In this document: positions 36,976 through 49,616 of the stretch, in pieces | How the letters are laid out: each line of letters begins with the position of its first letter | How positions within the stretch are numbered: position 1 is the stretch's first letter | Assembly (NCBI GenBank): GCA_016715815.1 | Contig: JADJXN010000007.1 | Coordinates: 5,549 to 69,548 of the forward strand | Source of the DNA: Oligoflexia bacterium | Lineage (GTDB): Bacteria > Bdellovibrionota > Bdellovibrionia > JABDDW01 | Direction: 5' to 3' | DNA: 64,000 nt | The notes under the pieces: generated by a model | Databases searched by the model: none | What the model was told of the DNA's origin: nothing | What the model saw: the letters and a program-made list of their open reading frames with translations, nothing else | Program-made: the position numbers and the translations under genes

Positions 36976-38103
36976 TTAGGGTTTACCTTTTAATTTCCTT
37001 AGGCCATAAATTGCTCGCCAAATATAAAGAGCTGGTAAATAGATGTTGGATTTGATGTTATATTTTTTCTTCATGTATTCTTTGGGGGGGATAAGTCGTT
37101 CCTGTAAGTATTTGAGTTTATTTGGTAAGCTTAGACTTTCTAAATCGCAAACAAAATCGCTTAGAAGGCTGCGCTTGGGGCTTAAAAAAACTATAGAATC
37201 AGCCTCATCACTATTGGGCTTGGCACTTATAATTTCTTGTAAGAAAGTCTCGGGCCATATTGTATTAAACCATTCTTTCGTTTTTTCCATGCCTTTAGCA
37301 CATAGAAACCAAACTTTTTTTTCTTTTGCTAGGTTTTGAAAATCCGTCAGCCAGATTGAGTTTTTTTTGTCAGTTAAAAGATGTGTATCATAAAGCCACA
37401 GCGGGTTTTCCTCATCGTGGTGGTGCGCAACACCATGAATAAAAGCATACAAGAGAGCGTGATGGTCGTTCATCACCTTTATGACTCCATTATGTTCTGG
37501 CAAATCTTGAGCTGCACTATAAGCCTCATCAAAAGAAATAAGATTTGCAAAATAATTAATATTACTGAGCTTCCAGTGCAGATCAAAAACCAAATTATAA
37601 CCATGGTGTTCAAGTTTTGAAAAGGCGCACTGATGTCCTGCCTGTTGGCCATAGGTCATATTTTCTTGTCTATAACCTAGAGATTTGAAAACCTGGAAAG
37701 CTAATTGACGATTTTTTTCAGAAATAAAAAGATCAATATCTCCGTGAGCGCGCAGACCTGGTCTTGGGTAAATGGTATAGGAGAGCGCAGCCCCTTTTAA
37801 AACAAGAAAAGGAATATTATTTTTTTTAAACTCAAGGCCTAATTTAATTAGGGCGTGTTTTCTGATGTCTATTAAAAACGTTTCTCGTGCTACCTCAAGC
37901 TTAAGGGCTTGCTTAACAGACGACGGGCAGGTTTGTGTAAGGACATTTTGTTCTAGCCAGTAATTTAATAGTGGCAGGAGATGATTTTTTTTTAACTCGT
38001 CTAAAAGAAATTTTTGAAACCCGGCATCGCTTTCATCCCAAGTTACAGTAGTGCTGTTAGCAGCTTGCTGTATTACTTTCTGAAATTTTTTTTGGTAAAG
38101 CAT
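36976..38103 (-). CDS. Pol-beta-type nucleotidyltransferase family protein (lasso-cluster-associated type)
   Basis: hG[GS]...D.D signature in AHGDIDLFIS; 4-nt gap to the upstream PqqD gene. Confidence 0.6.
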   Translation of the reverse strand: MLYQKKFQKVIQQAANSTTVTWDESDAGFQKFLLDELKKNHLLPLLNYWLEQNVLTQTCPSSVKQALKLEVARETFLIDIRKHALIKLGLEFKKNNIPFLVLKGAALSYTIYPRPGLRAHGDIDLFISEKNRQLAFQVFKSLGYRQENMTYGQQAGHQCAFSKLEHHGYNLVFDLHWKLSNINYFANLISFDEAYSAAQDLPEHNGVIKVMNDHHALLYAFIHGVAHHHDEENPLWLYDTHLLTDKKNSIWLTDFQNLAKEKKVWFLCAKGMEKTKEWFNTIWPETFLQEIISAKPNSDEADSIVFLSPKRSLLSDFVCDLESLSLPNKLKYLQERLIPPKEYMKKKYNIKSNIYLPALYIWRAIYGLRKLKGKP

Positions 38104-38107
38104 AGAT

Positions 38108-38395
38108 TTACTGAAAGCTAATCAAATTATTTTTTTTTAAAACTTTTAGTAAGGATAAAACATCGGTCTCTGCTTTTTGTTTGCCAATCTGGTAATCTTG
38201 CACAAGTGTAGTAATAATTTTTTTTACAGGAGTTCCTTTTTTTATCAGTTCCCAAATTTGGGTCCCAACCTGGTTAAGACCGAAGTACGTTCCTGATTCT
38301 AAATGAAGTATGACTTCTTCTTTTTGAACGGGGCGCGAGACAATGTCTTTAGAAATTATTATTTTAGATTCAAGAAGGTTCTTTGTGCTTTGCAT
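38108..38395 (-). CDS. PqqD-family RiPP recognition element (lasso B1-like)
   Basis: 95 aa (ILHLESGTYFGLNQVGTQIWELIKKGTPVKKIITTLVQDY) with the typical PqqD winged-helix pattern. Confidence 0.75.
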   Translation of the reverse strand: MQSTKNLLESKIIISKDIVSRPVQKEEVILHLESGTYFGLNQVGTQIWELIKKGTPVKKIITTLVQDYQIGKQKAETDVLSLLKVLKKNNLISFQ

Positions 38396-39641
38396 AGACC
38401 ACCTGCGGGTTAGAGAATAATTTATTAAACAACAAATTTTTATTTTTTGTCAAGTAATGTTCAACAGTATATGCAGCATAAAGCATTAAATAGATATCCA
38501 GATAGGTTCTGTGTAATGTGTGGGCCCAAAAAACCCCTGTTATAATAATAAATGATGCAAAGTGAAAATAAATAAGAAGCTGTGTTTTTATTTTTTCTCT
38601 ATTTAAATACATTCCAATTAAACCCAAAAGCAAAAGTGGTGTGTAAGAAAAAAAATAAACAATTTGTACAACTGGAGTTTTTTGCGGGTTAAAAATCCAA
38701 CTAAAACCAGCCATATTTTTTTTTATAAAACCCACAAAAGTTTGCCATGGGTGAGTTTTAATGTATTTGATAGCCATTTGAGTGTACCACTGGTTCTGTA
38801 GACGCTCGTTATGTTCTATCAGATAAATCTCAACTATATCTAGATCGATAAAGGCTTTTGAACGGCTTGTATCCATGCTTTCTCTTGGGTAGTGAGAAAA
38901 TGTGTGAGGATTATTCCCTCCCCAGAGAGCCTTACCAAACTGGGAGGTTATTAGTGGGGCGCCAATAAGAAGATGGGTGCGTATAAGCCACGGTAAAATA
39001 GTGAAAAAACAAAAAATAATAATTAAAAGGGGTTTTCCAAATTTTATTTTAATATGAGCGGTGTTATTTATAAAAACCCATATTGCGGCAAGTGGTACAA
39101 ATGGGAATAGAGTGCTTCGGACAAGTAAGGTTAGGCCTAAACAGATCCCTGCTACAGCACTTAGATAAAGCTTTTTTGAATTGTTAGCCTTGATTAGAAA
39201 GACGGTGCTAAGTGCCGTCATAAATGTAAAAAGACTAGCTTCGTGTAATGAAGGATCATGAAGAACAAAGTAAGGGTAAAGAGCTGTTAATAGAGCTGCA
39301 CTTATTCCTATTTTGTAAGAGAAAAATTTTTTTCCGATGTAGAAGATGCAAAGTGTGGTGGCGGCGCCTAAGAGAGATTGGAGAACAACAATAACAATAA
39401 AACTCATGGAGCTTAATGCCGCAAAACTAAGAAGAAGTGGGTAGCCGGGTGGAATAAAGGCGTAGTAGGCTGGGTCGCCGAGGTAAAGCCCGTATCCTTG
39501 TGTAAGATTTTTTGCAATCTGAAAGTAGGACTCATATCCACGGTTCCAAAATAAATCCTCTCCGACAATAAAGGCGGAGCCTGCGCGCAGCATAAAGGCG
39601 AGTACAAAAATTAAATGTAACCGATATTTTTTTATATACAT
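38370..39641 (-). CDS. GT-C fold membrane glycosyltransferase (ArnT/PMT family)
   Basis: 423 aa polytopic protein with an ArnT/PMT-like N-terminal loop (...YAFIPPGYPLLLSFA...) and ~10 TM helices; 3' end overlaps the PqqD gene. Confidence 0.6.
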   Translation of the reverse strand: MYIKKYRLHLIFVLAFMLRAGSAFIVGEDLFWNRGYESYFQIAKNLTQGYGLYLGDPAYYAFIPPGYPLLLSFAALSSMSFIVIVVLQSLLGAATTLCIFYIGKKFFSYKIGISAALLTALYPYFVLHDPSLHEASLFTFMTALSTVFLIKANNSKKLYLSAVAGICLGLTLLVRSTLFPFVPLAAIWVFINNTAHIKIKFGKPLLIIIFCFFTILPWLIRTHLLIGAPLITSQFGKALWGGNNPHTFSHYPRESMDTSRSKAFIDLDIVEIYLIEHNERLQNQWYTQMAIKYIKTHPWQTFVGFIKKNMAGFSWIFNPQKTPVVQIVYFFSYTPLLLLGLIGMYLNREKIKTQLLIYFHFASFIIITGVFWAHTLHRTYLDIYLMLYAAYTVEHYLTKNKNLLFNKLFSNPQVVYAKHKEPS

Positions 39642-48146: not shown

Positions 48147-48158
48147 GTAAAGGTTTAA

Positions 48159-48944
48159 ATGATCAGAATATTTCAAATGCTTTGCTTTCAAAATTTTAAA
48201 GAAGCCTACCCACGGTTTTGGCCAGTATTTGGTGAGGTTATTAATATTGCTCTAAGTTTATCGATATATTGGTTTACAGCAAAAGCTTTTGGAGTGCATT
48301 TTGAAGGAAATTATTTTTCTTACATTCTTATAGGAGATATTGCTCTTGCTATTCCTGCGCTACTATTTACCAGTGTGGCCATGCGCCTAAGGGAATCTAT
48401 TAATGATGGAACCTTCGAGGCTATTTTGGTATCGCCACCAAAAACATATTTTATATATCTACTTTGGGGGTTGGCTAGCCTGCCTCGGGAACTTGTTAGA
48501 ATTTTCCTATTGCTTTTGACGGCAACTTTTTTATTCGATTTTAATATTAGAGAGTACCAATGGTTTAATTTATTTATTTTGGAAATTTTATTTTTCCCTA
48601 TCTTCTTGGCCTTGGGCCTTCTTGGTGCAACCATGCTTATTTTTTGGGGACGAGGTGTGTCGGTAATTAATCAAGCGGCCCTCATGCTAACAGTTTTGGC
48701 CGGCGCCTTTTTTCCAGTAACCGTCCTTCCCGAGATTGCCCAAAAGATTTCATTTTATTTTTCACCTTTCAGCCTTTTCTTGGTAACCGCACGAAAAGTT
48801 TTGCAAAGTGACTGGAGTGTTTTTACTACGGCTCTCCCTTGGATTGGAATTTGGTTTATTACAAGTCTGCCTTTGAGCGTCTTACTTTTTAATTTGGCAA
48901 TCGATCACAATAAAAAAAGAGGAAGCCCGCTGCTAGTCACATGA
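48159..48944 (+). CDS. ABC-2 type transporter permease
   Basis: 261 aa with six predicted TM helices; ABC-2 family hydrophobicity pattern. Confidence 0.65.
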   Translation: MIRIFQMLCFQNFKEAYPRFWPVFGEVINIALSLSIYWFTAKAFGVHFEGNYFSYILIGDIALAIPALLFTSVAMRLRESINDGTFEAILVSPPKTYFIYLLWGLASLPRELVRIFLLLLTATFLFDFNIREYQWFNLFILEILFFPIFLALGLLGATMLIFWGRGVSVINQAALMLTVLAGAFFPVTVLPEIAQKISFYFSPFSLFLVTARKVLQSDWSVFTTALPWIGIWFITSLPLSVLLFNLAIDHNKKRGSPLLVT

Positions 48945-49616
48945 GTTTGTAGTATCAAAAAGGCCCCCATTTTTTAACTCAATACATCTGGAGGCAATAC
49001 TGGATAAAAAATTATGTTCGTGGGCTGAAAATAAAATAGTTTTTTTGTGTTTATTTTGAGTAAAAAAAGATTTTAAAATTTCAGTGGATTTAGAATCTAA
49101 GTGCAGCCCCGGCTCATCTAAAAATAAAATAGAGGGGTCGTGTAGTATTCCCCGAAAGAGGTTAAGTGAGTGCTTCATTCCAGCCGAGCAAACATAAAAT
49201 GGTGTTTTAAGAGCGTCTGTAAATGGGGTAACCTGCTCCCATGTTTTAATTTTTCTATTTATAGCATTTTTATCTAATTTATAAAAAGAGCCAAAAAGGT
49301 ATAGGTTTTGTAGTCCATTTAAGCGGGGAAAAAAGGCACTTTGTGTTGAGGAGATCCAACCCATTTGAACTTTGGCTTTTAAAGGTTCTTTAATAACAGA
49401 ATAACCATTAAGCCACGCGTCCCCTTTTGTTGGTTTTAACAATGTTGCTAAAATACGTAGCAGTGTTGTTTTCCCGGCGCCATTACTTCCCCTTAACAAA
49501 ACAATTTCGCCACTATTAATATTGATATTTATATTGTTGAGAACTTGTTTGGCTCCAAAACAGCGTTGCAGGTCCTTAATTTGTATCGCCAGTGATTTTG
49601 TAGACTCTTGATTCAT
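48933..49616 (-). CDS. ABC transporter ATP-binding protein
   Basis: Walker A GSNGAGKTT, signature CSAGMKHSL, Walker B ILFLDEPG; convergent with and overlapping the permease 3' end by 12 nt. Confidence 0.8.
   Translation of the reverse strand: MNQESTKSLAIQIKDLQRCFGAKQVLNNINININSGEIVLLRGSNGAGKTTLLRILATLLKPTKGDAWLNGYSVIKEPLKAKVQMGWISSTQSAFFPRLNGLQNLYLFGSFYKLDKNAINRKIKTWEQVTPFTDALKTPFYVCSAGMKHSLNLFRGILHDPSILFLDEPGLHLDSKSTEILKSFFTQNKHKKTILFSAHEHNFLSSIASRCIELKNGGLFDTTNSCD

Follow-up and report, generated by a model that had tools for sequence, protein, structure and literature searches.

The question raised by this locus is whether lasso-peptide genes scattered through an envelope-glycan region still make up one pathway, and which of the genes lying between them take part in it. 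In the window (the whole stretch of DNA that was analysed, 64,000 nucleotides from the metagenome-assembled genome of an uncultured Oligoflexia bacterium), the initial annotation had read a kinase-type, split-B and physically dispersed lasso set. Profile searches and motif checks support this core reading, as each of the six proteins named there carries its assigned domain at its assigned place. The features concerned are:

32790..32882: tRNA-Ser(GGA), flank of the locus
~34.16-35.06 kb and 35.50-36.62 kb: two IS3-family copies, frameshifted, flank of the locus
36976..38103, (-): N, NTP_transf_5 nucleotidyltransferase-fold protein, 375 aa (PF14907, E=2.5e-32)
38108..38395, (-): B1, PqqD-like RiPP recognition element (RRE), 95 aa (PF05402, E=2.6e-17)
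38370..39641, (-): PMT_2/GT39-like GT-C membrane glycosyltransferase, 423 aa (PF13231, E=9.5e-11)
44662..45612, (-): K, HprK-like peptide kinase, 316 aa (weak HprK_rel_A and Hpr_kinase_C matches, catalytic motif, BsfK homology)
45619..45795, (-): A, precursor, 58 aa, directly after the cyclase gene (YxxPxL leader, homologous to the precursors of relatives)
45792..47681, (-): C, AsnB-like lactam synthetase (lasso cyclase), 629 aa, in an ORF reaching 47726 (PF00733 and GATase_6/7)
47727..48146, (+): B2, transglutaminase-like Cys protease (leader peptidase), 139 aa (NF033537; PF13471, E=1.8e-19)
48159..48944, (+): ABC-2-type permease, 261 aa (PF01061 weak, 22.3 bits, under the cut-off of 26.9)
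48933..49616, (-): ABC ATPase, 227 aa (PF00005, E=3.7e-23)

We reject chance as an explanation: six lasso-type domains and a matching precursor inside 12.6 kb lie far beyond it. The sequence shows directly what the genes are, that catalytic residues and neighborhoods are conserved, and that the precursor has homologs; seven reading frames are all intact, every catalytic residue tested is conserved, and the GC content of the locus is that of its surroundings. The lasso gene set is complete but unusually spread out, and its kinase/nucleotidyltransferase type is already known. Since four points of the initial annotation (gene order, its plasticity, PMT_2 and the nucleotidyltransferase) are corrected here, the system becomes one of a known kind. 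Judging from sequence, we consider it likely that the locus is a genuine, probably functional K/N-type lasso-peptide gene set dispersed in an envelope-glycan region.

The AsnB homolog matches PF00733 over the frame 45792..47726(-) and contains the invariant SGGLDSS. Its second residue is Ser and not the Cys2 nucleophile, likewise in 108 of 120 homologs; because MS begins that many of them, the ATG at 47681 (MSGLAGIW) is almost certainly the true start, and the upstream TTG at 47726 is probably unused. Among NCBIfam models the lasso cyclase NF033535 fits best (354 bits, under the cut-off of 525), and the protein groups with ~1,900 others, sampled members of which adjoin lasso precursors, B1, B2 and K. 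The cyclase gene adjoins A and K in the loci analysed.

The precursor gene, whose presence had been claimed and which is now found at 45619..45795(-), overlaps the cyclase stop codon with its ATG (ATGA) and has GAGGA 8 nt upstream; the operon reads C-A-K, as in most relatives, and not A-C-K as previously described. The leader/core boundary was placed by the Y(-17)/P(-14)/L(-12) rule (PMC10368454), which assigns residues 1-33 to the leader, MKKIKKHKKKHQIKKKYESPKLTNYGNIKSVVK (Y17=-17, P20=-14, L22=-12, V32=-2), and leaves a predicted 25-aa core, ARKGGGGFDGGGGKPNSRASGWPPT, with a ring from Ala1 to Asp9. A phmmer comparison (down to 9e-11) shows the protein to be a homolog of the small ORF behind the cyclase gene of relatives: ~66 related loci carry such a precursor with the canonical YxxPxL leader in the same position, the family pattern being PYRxPxLxxYGDxxxLT-x in the leader and (A/G/T)KGGxxxD-GxGKPxTR... 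in the core. An ORF search of the window found no second such ORF, and the Val(-2)/Asp9 combination occurs in one further precursor, at locus L030. Both known phosphorylation sites, the C-terminal Ser and Ser3, are absent from the precursor family, the window core having Lys at position 3 and Thr as its C-terminal residue. Our best guess for the site is core Ser17, in the tail motif K-P-N-S-R, because this is the sole hydroxyl position conserved across the family.

The leader-processing proteins, the kinase and the nucleotidyltransferase proved to be what had been proposed. B1 is matched best among NCBIfam models by lasso_PqqD_Bac (68.5 bits, under the cut-off of 80), retains the conserved Y37, W48, D78 and L91, and is 30% identical to BsfB1 (E=3e-16). 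B2 passes the lasso B2 model (78.4 bits, cut-off 33), is 31% identical to BsfB2, and has the expected Cys/His/Asp residues, with C79 and H112 invariant in 50 of 50 relatives and an acidic D127 at the expected distance; position 116 is Val in the window versus Glu in 42/50. In the kinase the family matches are weak (PF07475 at 21.3 bits, cut-off 33.3; TIGR04352 HprK_rel_A, E=3.4e-10), but 64-67 of 67 relatives retain the residues of the complete catalytic motif, H119-G135-G138-G140-K141-S142-D158-D159, and this motif agrees with the one validated by mutation in the experimentally characterised BsfK (26% identity, E=3e-12). N, which starts 4 nt past the B1 stop, carries the AHGDIDLF motif, and G104, D122, D124 and H223 are invariant across 46 relatives; it departs from the consensus at A84 (Glu, 44/46), N205 (Gly, 42/46) and F221 (Cys, 42/46). 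Its D-x-D (D122/D124) corresponds to D134/D136 of PsmN, a protein without which the phospho-Ser of pseudomycoidin receives no hexose (PMC6993621), and the earlier label "uncharacterised" no longer wholly applies.

The permease is probably one exporter half. The two halves are convergent, as first noted, and their genes overlap by 12 nt. Homologous permease and ATPase pairs stand beside the cluster in L023, L027, L028, L036, L063, L071, L077 and L082, co-directional and with the ATPase first in those checked (L023, L027, L077); the best relative of the ATPase (137.6 bits) adjoins the C-A-K-N cluster of L057. The start codons of C and the divergent B2 are only 45 nt apart and those of the ATPase and a GT2 gene 36 nt, leaving little room for promoters; a promoter scan gave no guidance, returning 39 sites versus 41 expected.

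The gene order is less remarkable than first described. The five enzyme genes of the window cover 11.2 kb, which among 47 loci is the second-widest span, the median being 5.8 kb. Relatives share the gene set B1, B2, C, A, K and N, and the 46 of them that have all five enzyme genes place these in at least 12 different orders over 4.1-12.6 kb; gene order is therefore plastic, the window being extreme yet within range. C and K are almost always adjacent in 79 related loci, mostly as C-A-K and in about ten as K-C(-A). The related cyclases (28-43% identical) come from Acidobacteriota, Gemmatimonadota, Nitrospirota, Methylomirabilota and others, and one relative with a ~40% identical cyclase has a compact B1-B2-C-A-K-N operon. 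With the closest relatives only ~40% identical, no sister locus confirms the arrangement in the window.

Bradymonas and Oligoflexia, the hosts of the two systems compared first, both belong to lineages with predatory members. The bsf cluster of Bradymonas sediminis FA350 (Duan et al. 2023, PMC10368454) is identical in gene content (A, B1, B2, C, D, K, N). BsfA and the window precursor have in common YxxPxL at leader positions -17..-12, a residue other than Thr at -2 (Ile in BsfA, Val in the window), and a layout of Lys-rich N-terminus, ring closing at Asp8 or Asp9, and a tail containing Gly and Pro. However, bsf is compact (7.2 kb), whereas five other genes lie between the enzyme genes of the window; BsfK targets core Ser3, where the window core has Lys; and the window, unlike bsf, has an ABC-2 permease with a separate ATPase, and a PMT_2, no GT-C partner being reported for bsf. 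The substrate of BsfK is the linear precursor, B1 stimulates the enzyme, and the bsf cluster gave no product in five heterologous hosts (PMC10368454), for which reason the class may be hard to activate.

In the pseudomycoidin psm cluster of Bacillus pseudomycoides (C, A, K, B1, B2, N, D; Zyubko et al. 2019, PMC6993621), the precursor is the substrate of the kinase, as proposed here, and PsmK and PsmN together yield a phospho-hexosyl lasso peptide. The D-x-D of PsmN is essential for adding hexose to the phosphate, and the window N keeps it. The psm cluster has no dedicated glycosyltransferase, and its authors allowed for PsmN being either the transferase itself or a feeder of a host glycosyltransferase. 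It is a Firmicute cluster with a C-terminal Ser as target, whereas the C-terminal residue is not conserved in the family of the window precursor. The founding kinase-type lasso cluster, paeninodin pade of Paenibacillus dendritiformis (Zhu et al. 2016, summarised in PMC9266682), encodes an HprK-like kinase with a His-Lys-Asp-Asp motif that adds phosphate to the precursor while this is still linear, ahead of cleavage and cyclisation; the cluster is compact and lacks an N gene, and its precursor has Thr(-2) and a conserved Ser at the C-terminus, the window differing on each count. Closest for every component, precursor included, are uncharacterised C-A-K(-N) clusters (L004-L082) of Acidobacteriota, Gemmatimonadota, Nitrospirota and Methylomirabilota, in which exporter homologs recur and some loci have a PMT_2, as in the window; unlike it, they typically span ~5-6 kb, and in most of them the residue at -2 is Thr and the ring closes on Asp8.

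From these parallels we infer a route whose chemical steps are all proposals, as are the site of phosphorylation, the threading and what the glycosyltransferase does. B1 would bind the precursor through the YxxPxL leader, and K would phosphorylate a Ser or Thr on the still-linear chain, probably with assistance from B1 as in Bsf. B2 would then cleave after Lys33, with Val at -2, and C would adenylate the Asp9 side chain and join it to the Ala1 amine, giving a 9-residue ring threaded by a 16-residue cationic tail. N, its D-x-D intact, may act on the phosphate like PsmN, leading to a hexose-type addition. The permease/ATPase pair would export the product. The GT-C glycosyltransferase, which most likely belongs to the system, may complete periplasmic glycosylation or modify the producer envelope against its own cationic peptide.

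Two other explanations concern the locus as a whole. That the AsnB homolog is an ordinary polysaccharide-pathway amidotransferase, with the PqqD, HprK-like and NTase proteins forming an unrelated EPS-associated system, would fit the surrounding glycan genes, the well-preserved GATase domain (PF13537, 94 bits), the match of the lasso cyclase model below its cut-off, and the scores of TIGR01536 (238.9 bits) and of the XrtA/PEP-CTERM amidotransferase model (177 bits). Yet TIGR01536 is itself under its cut-off (267.1), the glutaminase nucleophile is replaced by Ser, a canonical precursor follows the gene in ~66 loci, and the adjacent B2 is a bona fide lasso protease by its curated cut-off, making this reading highly improbable. 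Less remote, and still unlikely, is a decaying, non-functional remnant, in which IS-mediated rearrangement scattered an ancestral compact B1-B2-C-A-K-N operon and left the genes open but not cooperating. The tRNA-Ser and two degenerate IS3 copies do lie directly beside the locus, as had been noted; its span is nearly the largest, the exporter halves are mutually inverted unlike those of relatives, the divergent intergenic regions are very short, and V116 in B2, the three deviations in N and the loss of Thr(-2) all suit decay. However, no repeats were found flanking the inverted genes, gene order is plastic in clearly intact relatives as well, experiments on BsfA validated Ile(-2), Val(-2) is found in silico in other kinase-type clusters (PMC10368454), and L030 shares Val(-2) with Asp9. 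The open frames, conserved catalytic residues and retained translational coupling (C/A ATGA; PMT2/B1 overlap; B1/N 4 nt) favor a functional gene set.

More evenly balanced is the standing of PMT_2. The initial annotation had the B1 and NTase genes displaced by a 6.5 kb insert from A, C and K; the displacement is real, but the insert is not all foreign, as the 3' end of the PMT_2 gene overlaps the B1 start by 26 nt and PMT_2 recurs elsewhere. The other four intervening genes have no relative among 162 comparison loci, and homologs of U383, MBOAT, U432 and U334 were not found in L004-L082. If K/N-type clusters merely tend to sit in exopolysaccharide or envelope-glycan loci, PMT_2 might simply hitch-hike in that neighborhood, a reading to which we give somewhat less than an even chance: its closest relatives (L083, L093) lie in large EPS/O-antigen-type loci with an AsnB-like gene and without B1, B2, K or N, L085 has neither glycan nor lasso context, lasso genes are absent from ~75% of the PMT_2-family loci that have 3 kb or more of flank, only 6 of 79 cyclase-anchored loci have the gene, and the window and Vicinamibacterales loci are rich in GT2, MBOAT, GHMP kinase and Wzz. 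Against this, the gene repeatedly adjoins or overlaps lasso genes directly and in the same direction, as PMT2->B1 in the window, L035, L133 and L148, as N->PMT2 in L084, L092, L113, L121 and L129, and as PMT2->N in L157. PMT_2 forms its own subfamily (31-42% identical), lasso-linked cases are scattered over nearly all clades of its tree, and co-occurrence of 19-25% is far above expectation for a lasso set of well under 1% of the genome (our estimate, not computed). Less closely related PMT_2 genes also stand at the edge of the cluster in 6 Vicinamibacterales loci, the one in L035 lying directly upstream of B1. Because its relatives stand beside B1, B2, K or N in 16 of 83 loci (directly adjacent in 10), we regard PMT_2 as a probable accessory component of the cluster, for tailoring or self-protection, and it is probably co-transcribed with B1 and N, since the reading frames overlap or nearly abut. 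The newest point is that this sugar-transferase gene, first read as an interruption, recurs beside such lasso clusters elsewhere.

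On sequence comparison, the genes at 36976-49616 are supported as a kinase/NTase-type lasso peptide gene set with split B1/B2, and the interpretation given in the initial annotation is upheld with four corrections. All the domains it had named were confirmed by Pfam and NCBIfam, and the genes are arranged as follows.

36976..38103, minus strand: N, NTP_transf_5 nucleotidyltransferase (PF14907, E=2.5e-32)
38108..38395, minus strand: B1, PqqD-like RRE protein (PF05402, E=2.6e-17; 63.3 bits against a cut-off of 23.4)
38370..39641, minus strand: PMT_2, GT-C glycosyltransferase
44662..45612, minus strand: K, HprK-like P-loop protein (weak family matches; Pfam HprK_C 21.3 against a cut-off of 33.3)
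45619..45795, minus strand: A, 58-aa precursor with a YxxPxL leader, adjoining the cyclase: MKKIKKHKKKHQIKKKYESPKLTNYGNIKSVVKARKGGGGFDGGGGKPNSRASGWPPT
45792..47726, minus strand: C, AsnB-like protein (PF00733, E=1.7e-33) with an SGGLDSS PP-loop
47727..48146, plus strand: B2, transglutaminase-like Cys protease (NF033537, 78.4 bits against a cut-off of 33)
Convergent pair, as initially described, with a 3' overlap of 12 nt: ABC-2 permease and ABC ATPase (Pfam)

The best NCBIfam models are lasso_PqqD_Bac for B1 (68.5 bits; cut-off 80) and the lasso cyclase model NF033535 for C (354 bits; cut-off 525). The true start of the cyclase is almost certainly the ATG at 47681 (MSGLAGIW), because MS begins 108 of its 120 best homologs. 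As had been proposed, the protein lacks the Cys2 glutaminase nucleophile, its N-terminus being MSG, with Ser2, and the SGGLDSS motif being present. A glutamine-dependent asparagine synthetase (AsnB) was rejected on the grounds of Ser2 in place of the Cys nucleophile and of a TIGR01536 score of 238.9 bits, below the cut-off of 267.1; a PDB sequence search with C returned generic AsnB-type enzymes only.

The operon had been described as A-C-K with no position given for A, but the actual order is C-A-K, because the precursor sits between the cyclase stop and the kinase start. The ATG of A overlaps the cyclase stop codon (ATGA), with GAGGA 8 nt upstream, and the kinase starts 6 nt beyond the end of A. 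It carries the leader motif Y17-E-S-P20-K-L22 and is the sole such ORF in the window. Under the published rule, with Tyr at -17, Pro at -14, and Leu at -12 (PMC10368454), the leader ends at Lys33, with Val32 at -2, and is followed by a 25-aa core that fits the needs of an isopeptide ring, i.e., a small residue at position 1 (Ala1) and an Asp within positions 7-9 (Asp9). The canonical Thr(-2) is absent from the window precursor, Val32 taking its place. This does not bar lasso membership, since Ile/Val(-2) has been noted in other kinase-type clusters by the authors who described the bsf cluster of Bradymonas sediminis, which contains exactly A, B1, B2, C, D, K, and N and itself has Ile(-2) (PMC10368454).

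To judge which residues are conserved, the window proteins were aligned with those of relatives and with the Bsf proteins from the literature; the window B1, B2, and K are 30%, 31%, and 26% identical to their Bsf counterparts, respectively. The kinase keeps H119, G135, G138, G140, K141, S142, D158, and D159, so that the catalytic motif expected of an HprK-like P-loop kinase (H...GxxGxGKS...DD), validated in BsfK by mutagenesis (PMC10368454), is complete despite the sub-cut-off Pfam match. B1 retains its conserved core. The Cys/His/Asp triad predicted for the 139-aa B2 is borne out by Cys79 and His112, both invariant (50/50), with D127, the acidic residue at +15, as the acidic partner by spacing only. 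N keeps G104, D122, D124, and H223, of which D122 and D124 are invariant in all 46 relatives, the D-x-D matching D134/D136 of PsmN, its pseudomycoidin counterpart, in position. The nucleotidyltransferase had been called uncharacterised, which no longer holds insofar as a role of PsmN in hexose addition has been published (PMC6993621). The deviations from relatives are Val116 in B2, where 42 of 50 carry Glu, and A84, N205, and F221 in N.

When the identical database record is set aside, the nearest cyclases are about 40% identical. A Nitrospirales MAG (comparison loci L001/L004) carries a compact B1-B2-C-A(54 aa)-K-N operon, and its peptide, ...YRAPRLVVYGDLRRLTK↓AKQGTNSD..., aligns with the window precursor. 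Used alone as the query of a genome scan, the kinase found nothing; a cyclase profile scan of GTDB genomes succeeded, giving 79 loci from Acidobacteriota, Gemmatimonadota, Nitrospirota, Methylomirabilota, and others, whose ORFs were searched with the window proteins. Adjacency of C and K is near-universal in these loci, mostly as C-A-K and in about ten as K-C(-A), and the positions of B1, B2, and N vary freely. The 46 loci that have the full set of five enzyme genes show at least 12 orders, with spans of 4.1-12.6 kb (median 5.8 kb); at 11.2 kb, the window ranks second widest of 47. Plastic order is thus normal for the family and the window is unusually spread, so that of the atypical arrangement originally reported, the wide spread stands and the unusual order does not. 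The lasso set of the window is of an already known kind, and as a member of its class the locus is unremarkable. Among the relatives, several Vicinamibacterales clusters (L018, L019, L067, and L081) have a gene of about 525 aa between B1 and B2 (about 8090-9670, minus strand), with a 478-aa gene between K and PMT_2; neither gene had a Pfam match in the scan, which was run in L081.

About 66 precursors homologous to A were recovered from the relatives, with the consensus PYRxPxLxx(Y/H)GDxxxLT-x↓(A/G/T)KGGxxxD-GxGKPx(T/S)(R/K)... A regex matched 70 peptides, of which about 66 are genuine, and 63 of the 70 have Thr(-2); Val(-2) is confined to the window and L030, both with a 9-residue ring in place of the usual 8. 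The cores are cationic (K+R minus D+E = +3). The window precursor carries neither known phosphorylation site, because both the C-terminal Ser and the BsfA-type Ser3 are missing: it ends in Thr rather than in the Ser acceptor of paeninodin, pseudomycoidin, and SyanA, and core position 3, the Ser/Thr3 acceptor in Bsf, is Lys. In the family, the C-terminal residue is variable, with Ser in just 2 of 70 peptides, and position 3 is mostly Gly. In the tail motif P-x-(T/S)-(R/K), the Thr/Ser supplies the lone conserved hydroxyl; relatives have this residue at D+6 or D+7, and in the window it is core Ser17, which we infer to be the kinase target. The monoisotopic masses predicted for the window product are 2352.147 for the dehydrated core ([M+3H]3+ 785.056), 2432.113 with phosphate, 2594.166 with phosphate and one hexose, and 2756.219 with phosphate and two hexoses. 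In six loci (L009, L017, L026, L028, L051, and L054), the first acidic core residue falls at position 10 under the Y(-17) rule (e.g., VTTKGGNHQD), which would imply a ring beyond the known 7-9 residues unless cleavage occurs after a second Thr.

Five genes part B1/N from C-A-K: PMT_2, U383 (plus strand), U334 (plus strand), and a DltB-like MBOAT acyltransferase accompanied by U432, the partner gene upstream of it (the U numbers mark unknowns). No relatives of U383, U334, U432, or the MBOAT were found in the 162 comparison loci, and three relatives of U383 occur in unrelated settings; we therefore treat these four genes as unlinked to the pathway. The earlier view of a displacing insert of acyl- and glycosyltransferase genes accordingly applies to these four and not to PMT_2, which is probably part of the system. 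The U383 family (about 400 aa) is conserved and has no Pfam match, and that of U334 (about 300 aa) has an invariant HExxH and a downstream Glu; AlphaFold modelled both proteins with confidence, and neither model had a significant PDB match. They are not paralogs or related families (BLASTP E=0.65; HHalign probability 1.4%), and PDB sequence searches with K, N, U383, U334, and U432 returned nothing useful.

PMT_2, B1, and N read as one operon, because PMT_2 shares the last 26 nt of its 3' end with the beginning of B1 and N begins 4 nt beyond B1. The window glycosyltransferase falls in its own subfamily. Six Vicinamibacterales loci carry less closely related PMT_2 genes beside the cluster, and the one in L035 lies directly upstream of B1. 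B1, B2, K, or N occurs in the flank of 16 of 83 loci anchored on the window subfamily; where the flank is at least 3 kb, the figure becomes 12 of 48. In 10 loci the genes are directly adjacent. The adjacency takes the form N then PMT_2 in L084, L092, L113, L121, and L129, PMT_2 then B1 in L133 and L148, and PMT_2 then N in L157, and the lasso-linked cases are spread over the entire subfamily tree. These observations argue that the glycosyltransferase probably belongs to the lasso system. The link is facultative, however: the closest relatives of the window enzyme occupy EPS loci without B1, B2, K, or N, and for this reason hitch-hiking within glycan loci remains a serious rival, to which we give considerable weight. 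No description of a GT-C partner of lasso clusters was found in the literature searched, which did not extend to the RODEO paper or the original paeninodin paper. Two kinase-type lasso clusters share a module of NTP_transf_5, PMT_2, and a TPR/GT41 (OGT-like) gene, in that order (L084 5064-9057; L121 8569-12974); the former cluster also has a sulfotransferase, and the latter a 2OG oxygenase and methyltransferases.

A second rival, that the lasso locus is a decaying remnant, draws on the small gaps between its divergent genes, the inversion of the exporter halves, the adjoining IS remnants, and a few residue substitutions. We consider it unlikely; the catalytic residues of K, N, and B2 are kept. 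The landmarks upstream, including the IS3 remnants and tRNA-Ser that had been reported beside the locus, are as follows.

20743-21074, minus strand: RNase P RNA (215 bits)
22918-22994, minus strand: tRNA-Met
23037-27460, minus strand: rpsU-like/dnaG/rpoD block
32790..32882: tRNA-Ser
~34.16-35.06 kb and 35.50-36.62 kb: two frameshifted IS3-family copies

The housekeeping landmarks indicate that the contig is chromosomal and not a plasmid or phage fragment; GC content is about 37% along the whole window. The start codons of the divergent pairs are only 45 nt (C/B2, 47681-47727) and 36 nt (ATPase/GT2, 49616-49653) apart, and their promoters must lie within neighbouring coding sequence. In addition to the exporter halves, U334 and K overlap at their 3' ends (16 nt), and U383 and the MBOAT abut. 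A promoter and terminator scan gave nothing above shuffled controls, a search for inverted or direct repeats behind local inversions or a switch gave only AT-rich, chance-level matches, and an Rfam scan of the locus had no match.

ArnT-type enzymes transfer sugars from polyprenyl-phosphate donors to phosphate groups, which suggests a possible phosphoglycosylation role for the GT-C enzyme: N would serve to activate the phosphorylated peptide or to provide the sugar donor, and the GT-C enzyme would finish the phosphoglycosylation in the periplasm after export. Alternatively, the glycosyltransferase might confer self-immunity, altering the producer envelope against its own cationic peptide (+3). 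That a dedicated PMT_2/ArnT-like subfamily is a recurrent functional partner of K/N-type lasso clusters and, jointly, that the kinase hits a third, new site in P-x-(T/S)-(R/K) is a combination we put forward only tentatively, and rather doubt. For pseudomycoidin, the precursor was shown to be phosphorylated by K, with N required for a hexose to be added to the phosphate, and the authors were undecided between N as the transferase and N feeding a separate glycosyltransferase (PMC6993621). If true, GT-C tailoring would settle whether PsmN performs the transfer or assists a separate glycosyltransferase. In rumen Firmicutes, lasso clusters have been noted together with kinases, NTases, and GT2-type glycosyltransferases (PMC7533575).

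The locus adds one kinase/NTase-type lasso cluster from Bdellovibrionota/Oligoflexia and illustrates how much scatter is compatible with intact genes; contiguity-based cluster-calling tools could overlook B1 and N here. To our knowledge, no lasso peptides have yet been described from this lineage. The comparison is more useful than the locus, as it defines a large, experimentally unstudied C-A-K(-N) cluster family of soil phyla, with a conserved cationic precursor devoid of both known phosphorylation sites, and provides genomic evidence of a GT-C glycosyltransferase travelling with these clusters. Both by-products, the unstudied precursor family and the recurrent GT-C partner bearing on the role of N, are worth testing, and the GT-C link makes the function of N and phosphoglycosylated lasso peptide chemistry directly testable.

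The 37-56 kb region as a whole looks like an envelope-glycan locus. It holds two MBOAT (DltB/AlgI-like) genes, each after a partner gene (40856-43608 and 51734-54217, both minus strand). The downstream partner is AlgX/SGNH-like; U432, the upstream one, has no family match, displays by eye FGSSEAH and DPNHTN motifs resembling SGNH/DltD blocks, and was rejected as a paralog of the AlgX-like protein, no similarity having been found. Also nearby are two GT2 genes, a sugar C-methyltransferase (54221-55453), and a PilZ (c-di-GMP-binding) protein (55459-56226, plus strand). A PilZ gene likewise lies near the cluster in L001 (14546-14926, minus strand), directly after N; this proximity may have arisen by chance or may point to regulation through c-di-GMP, shared with EPS genes.
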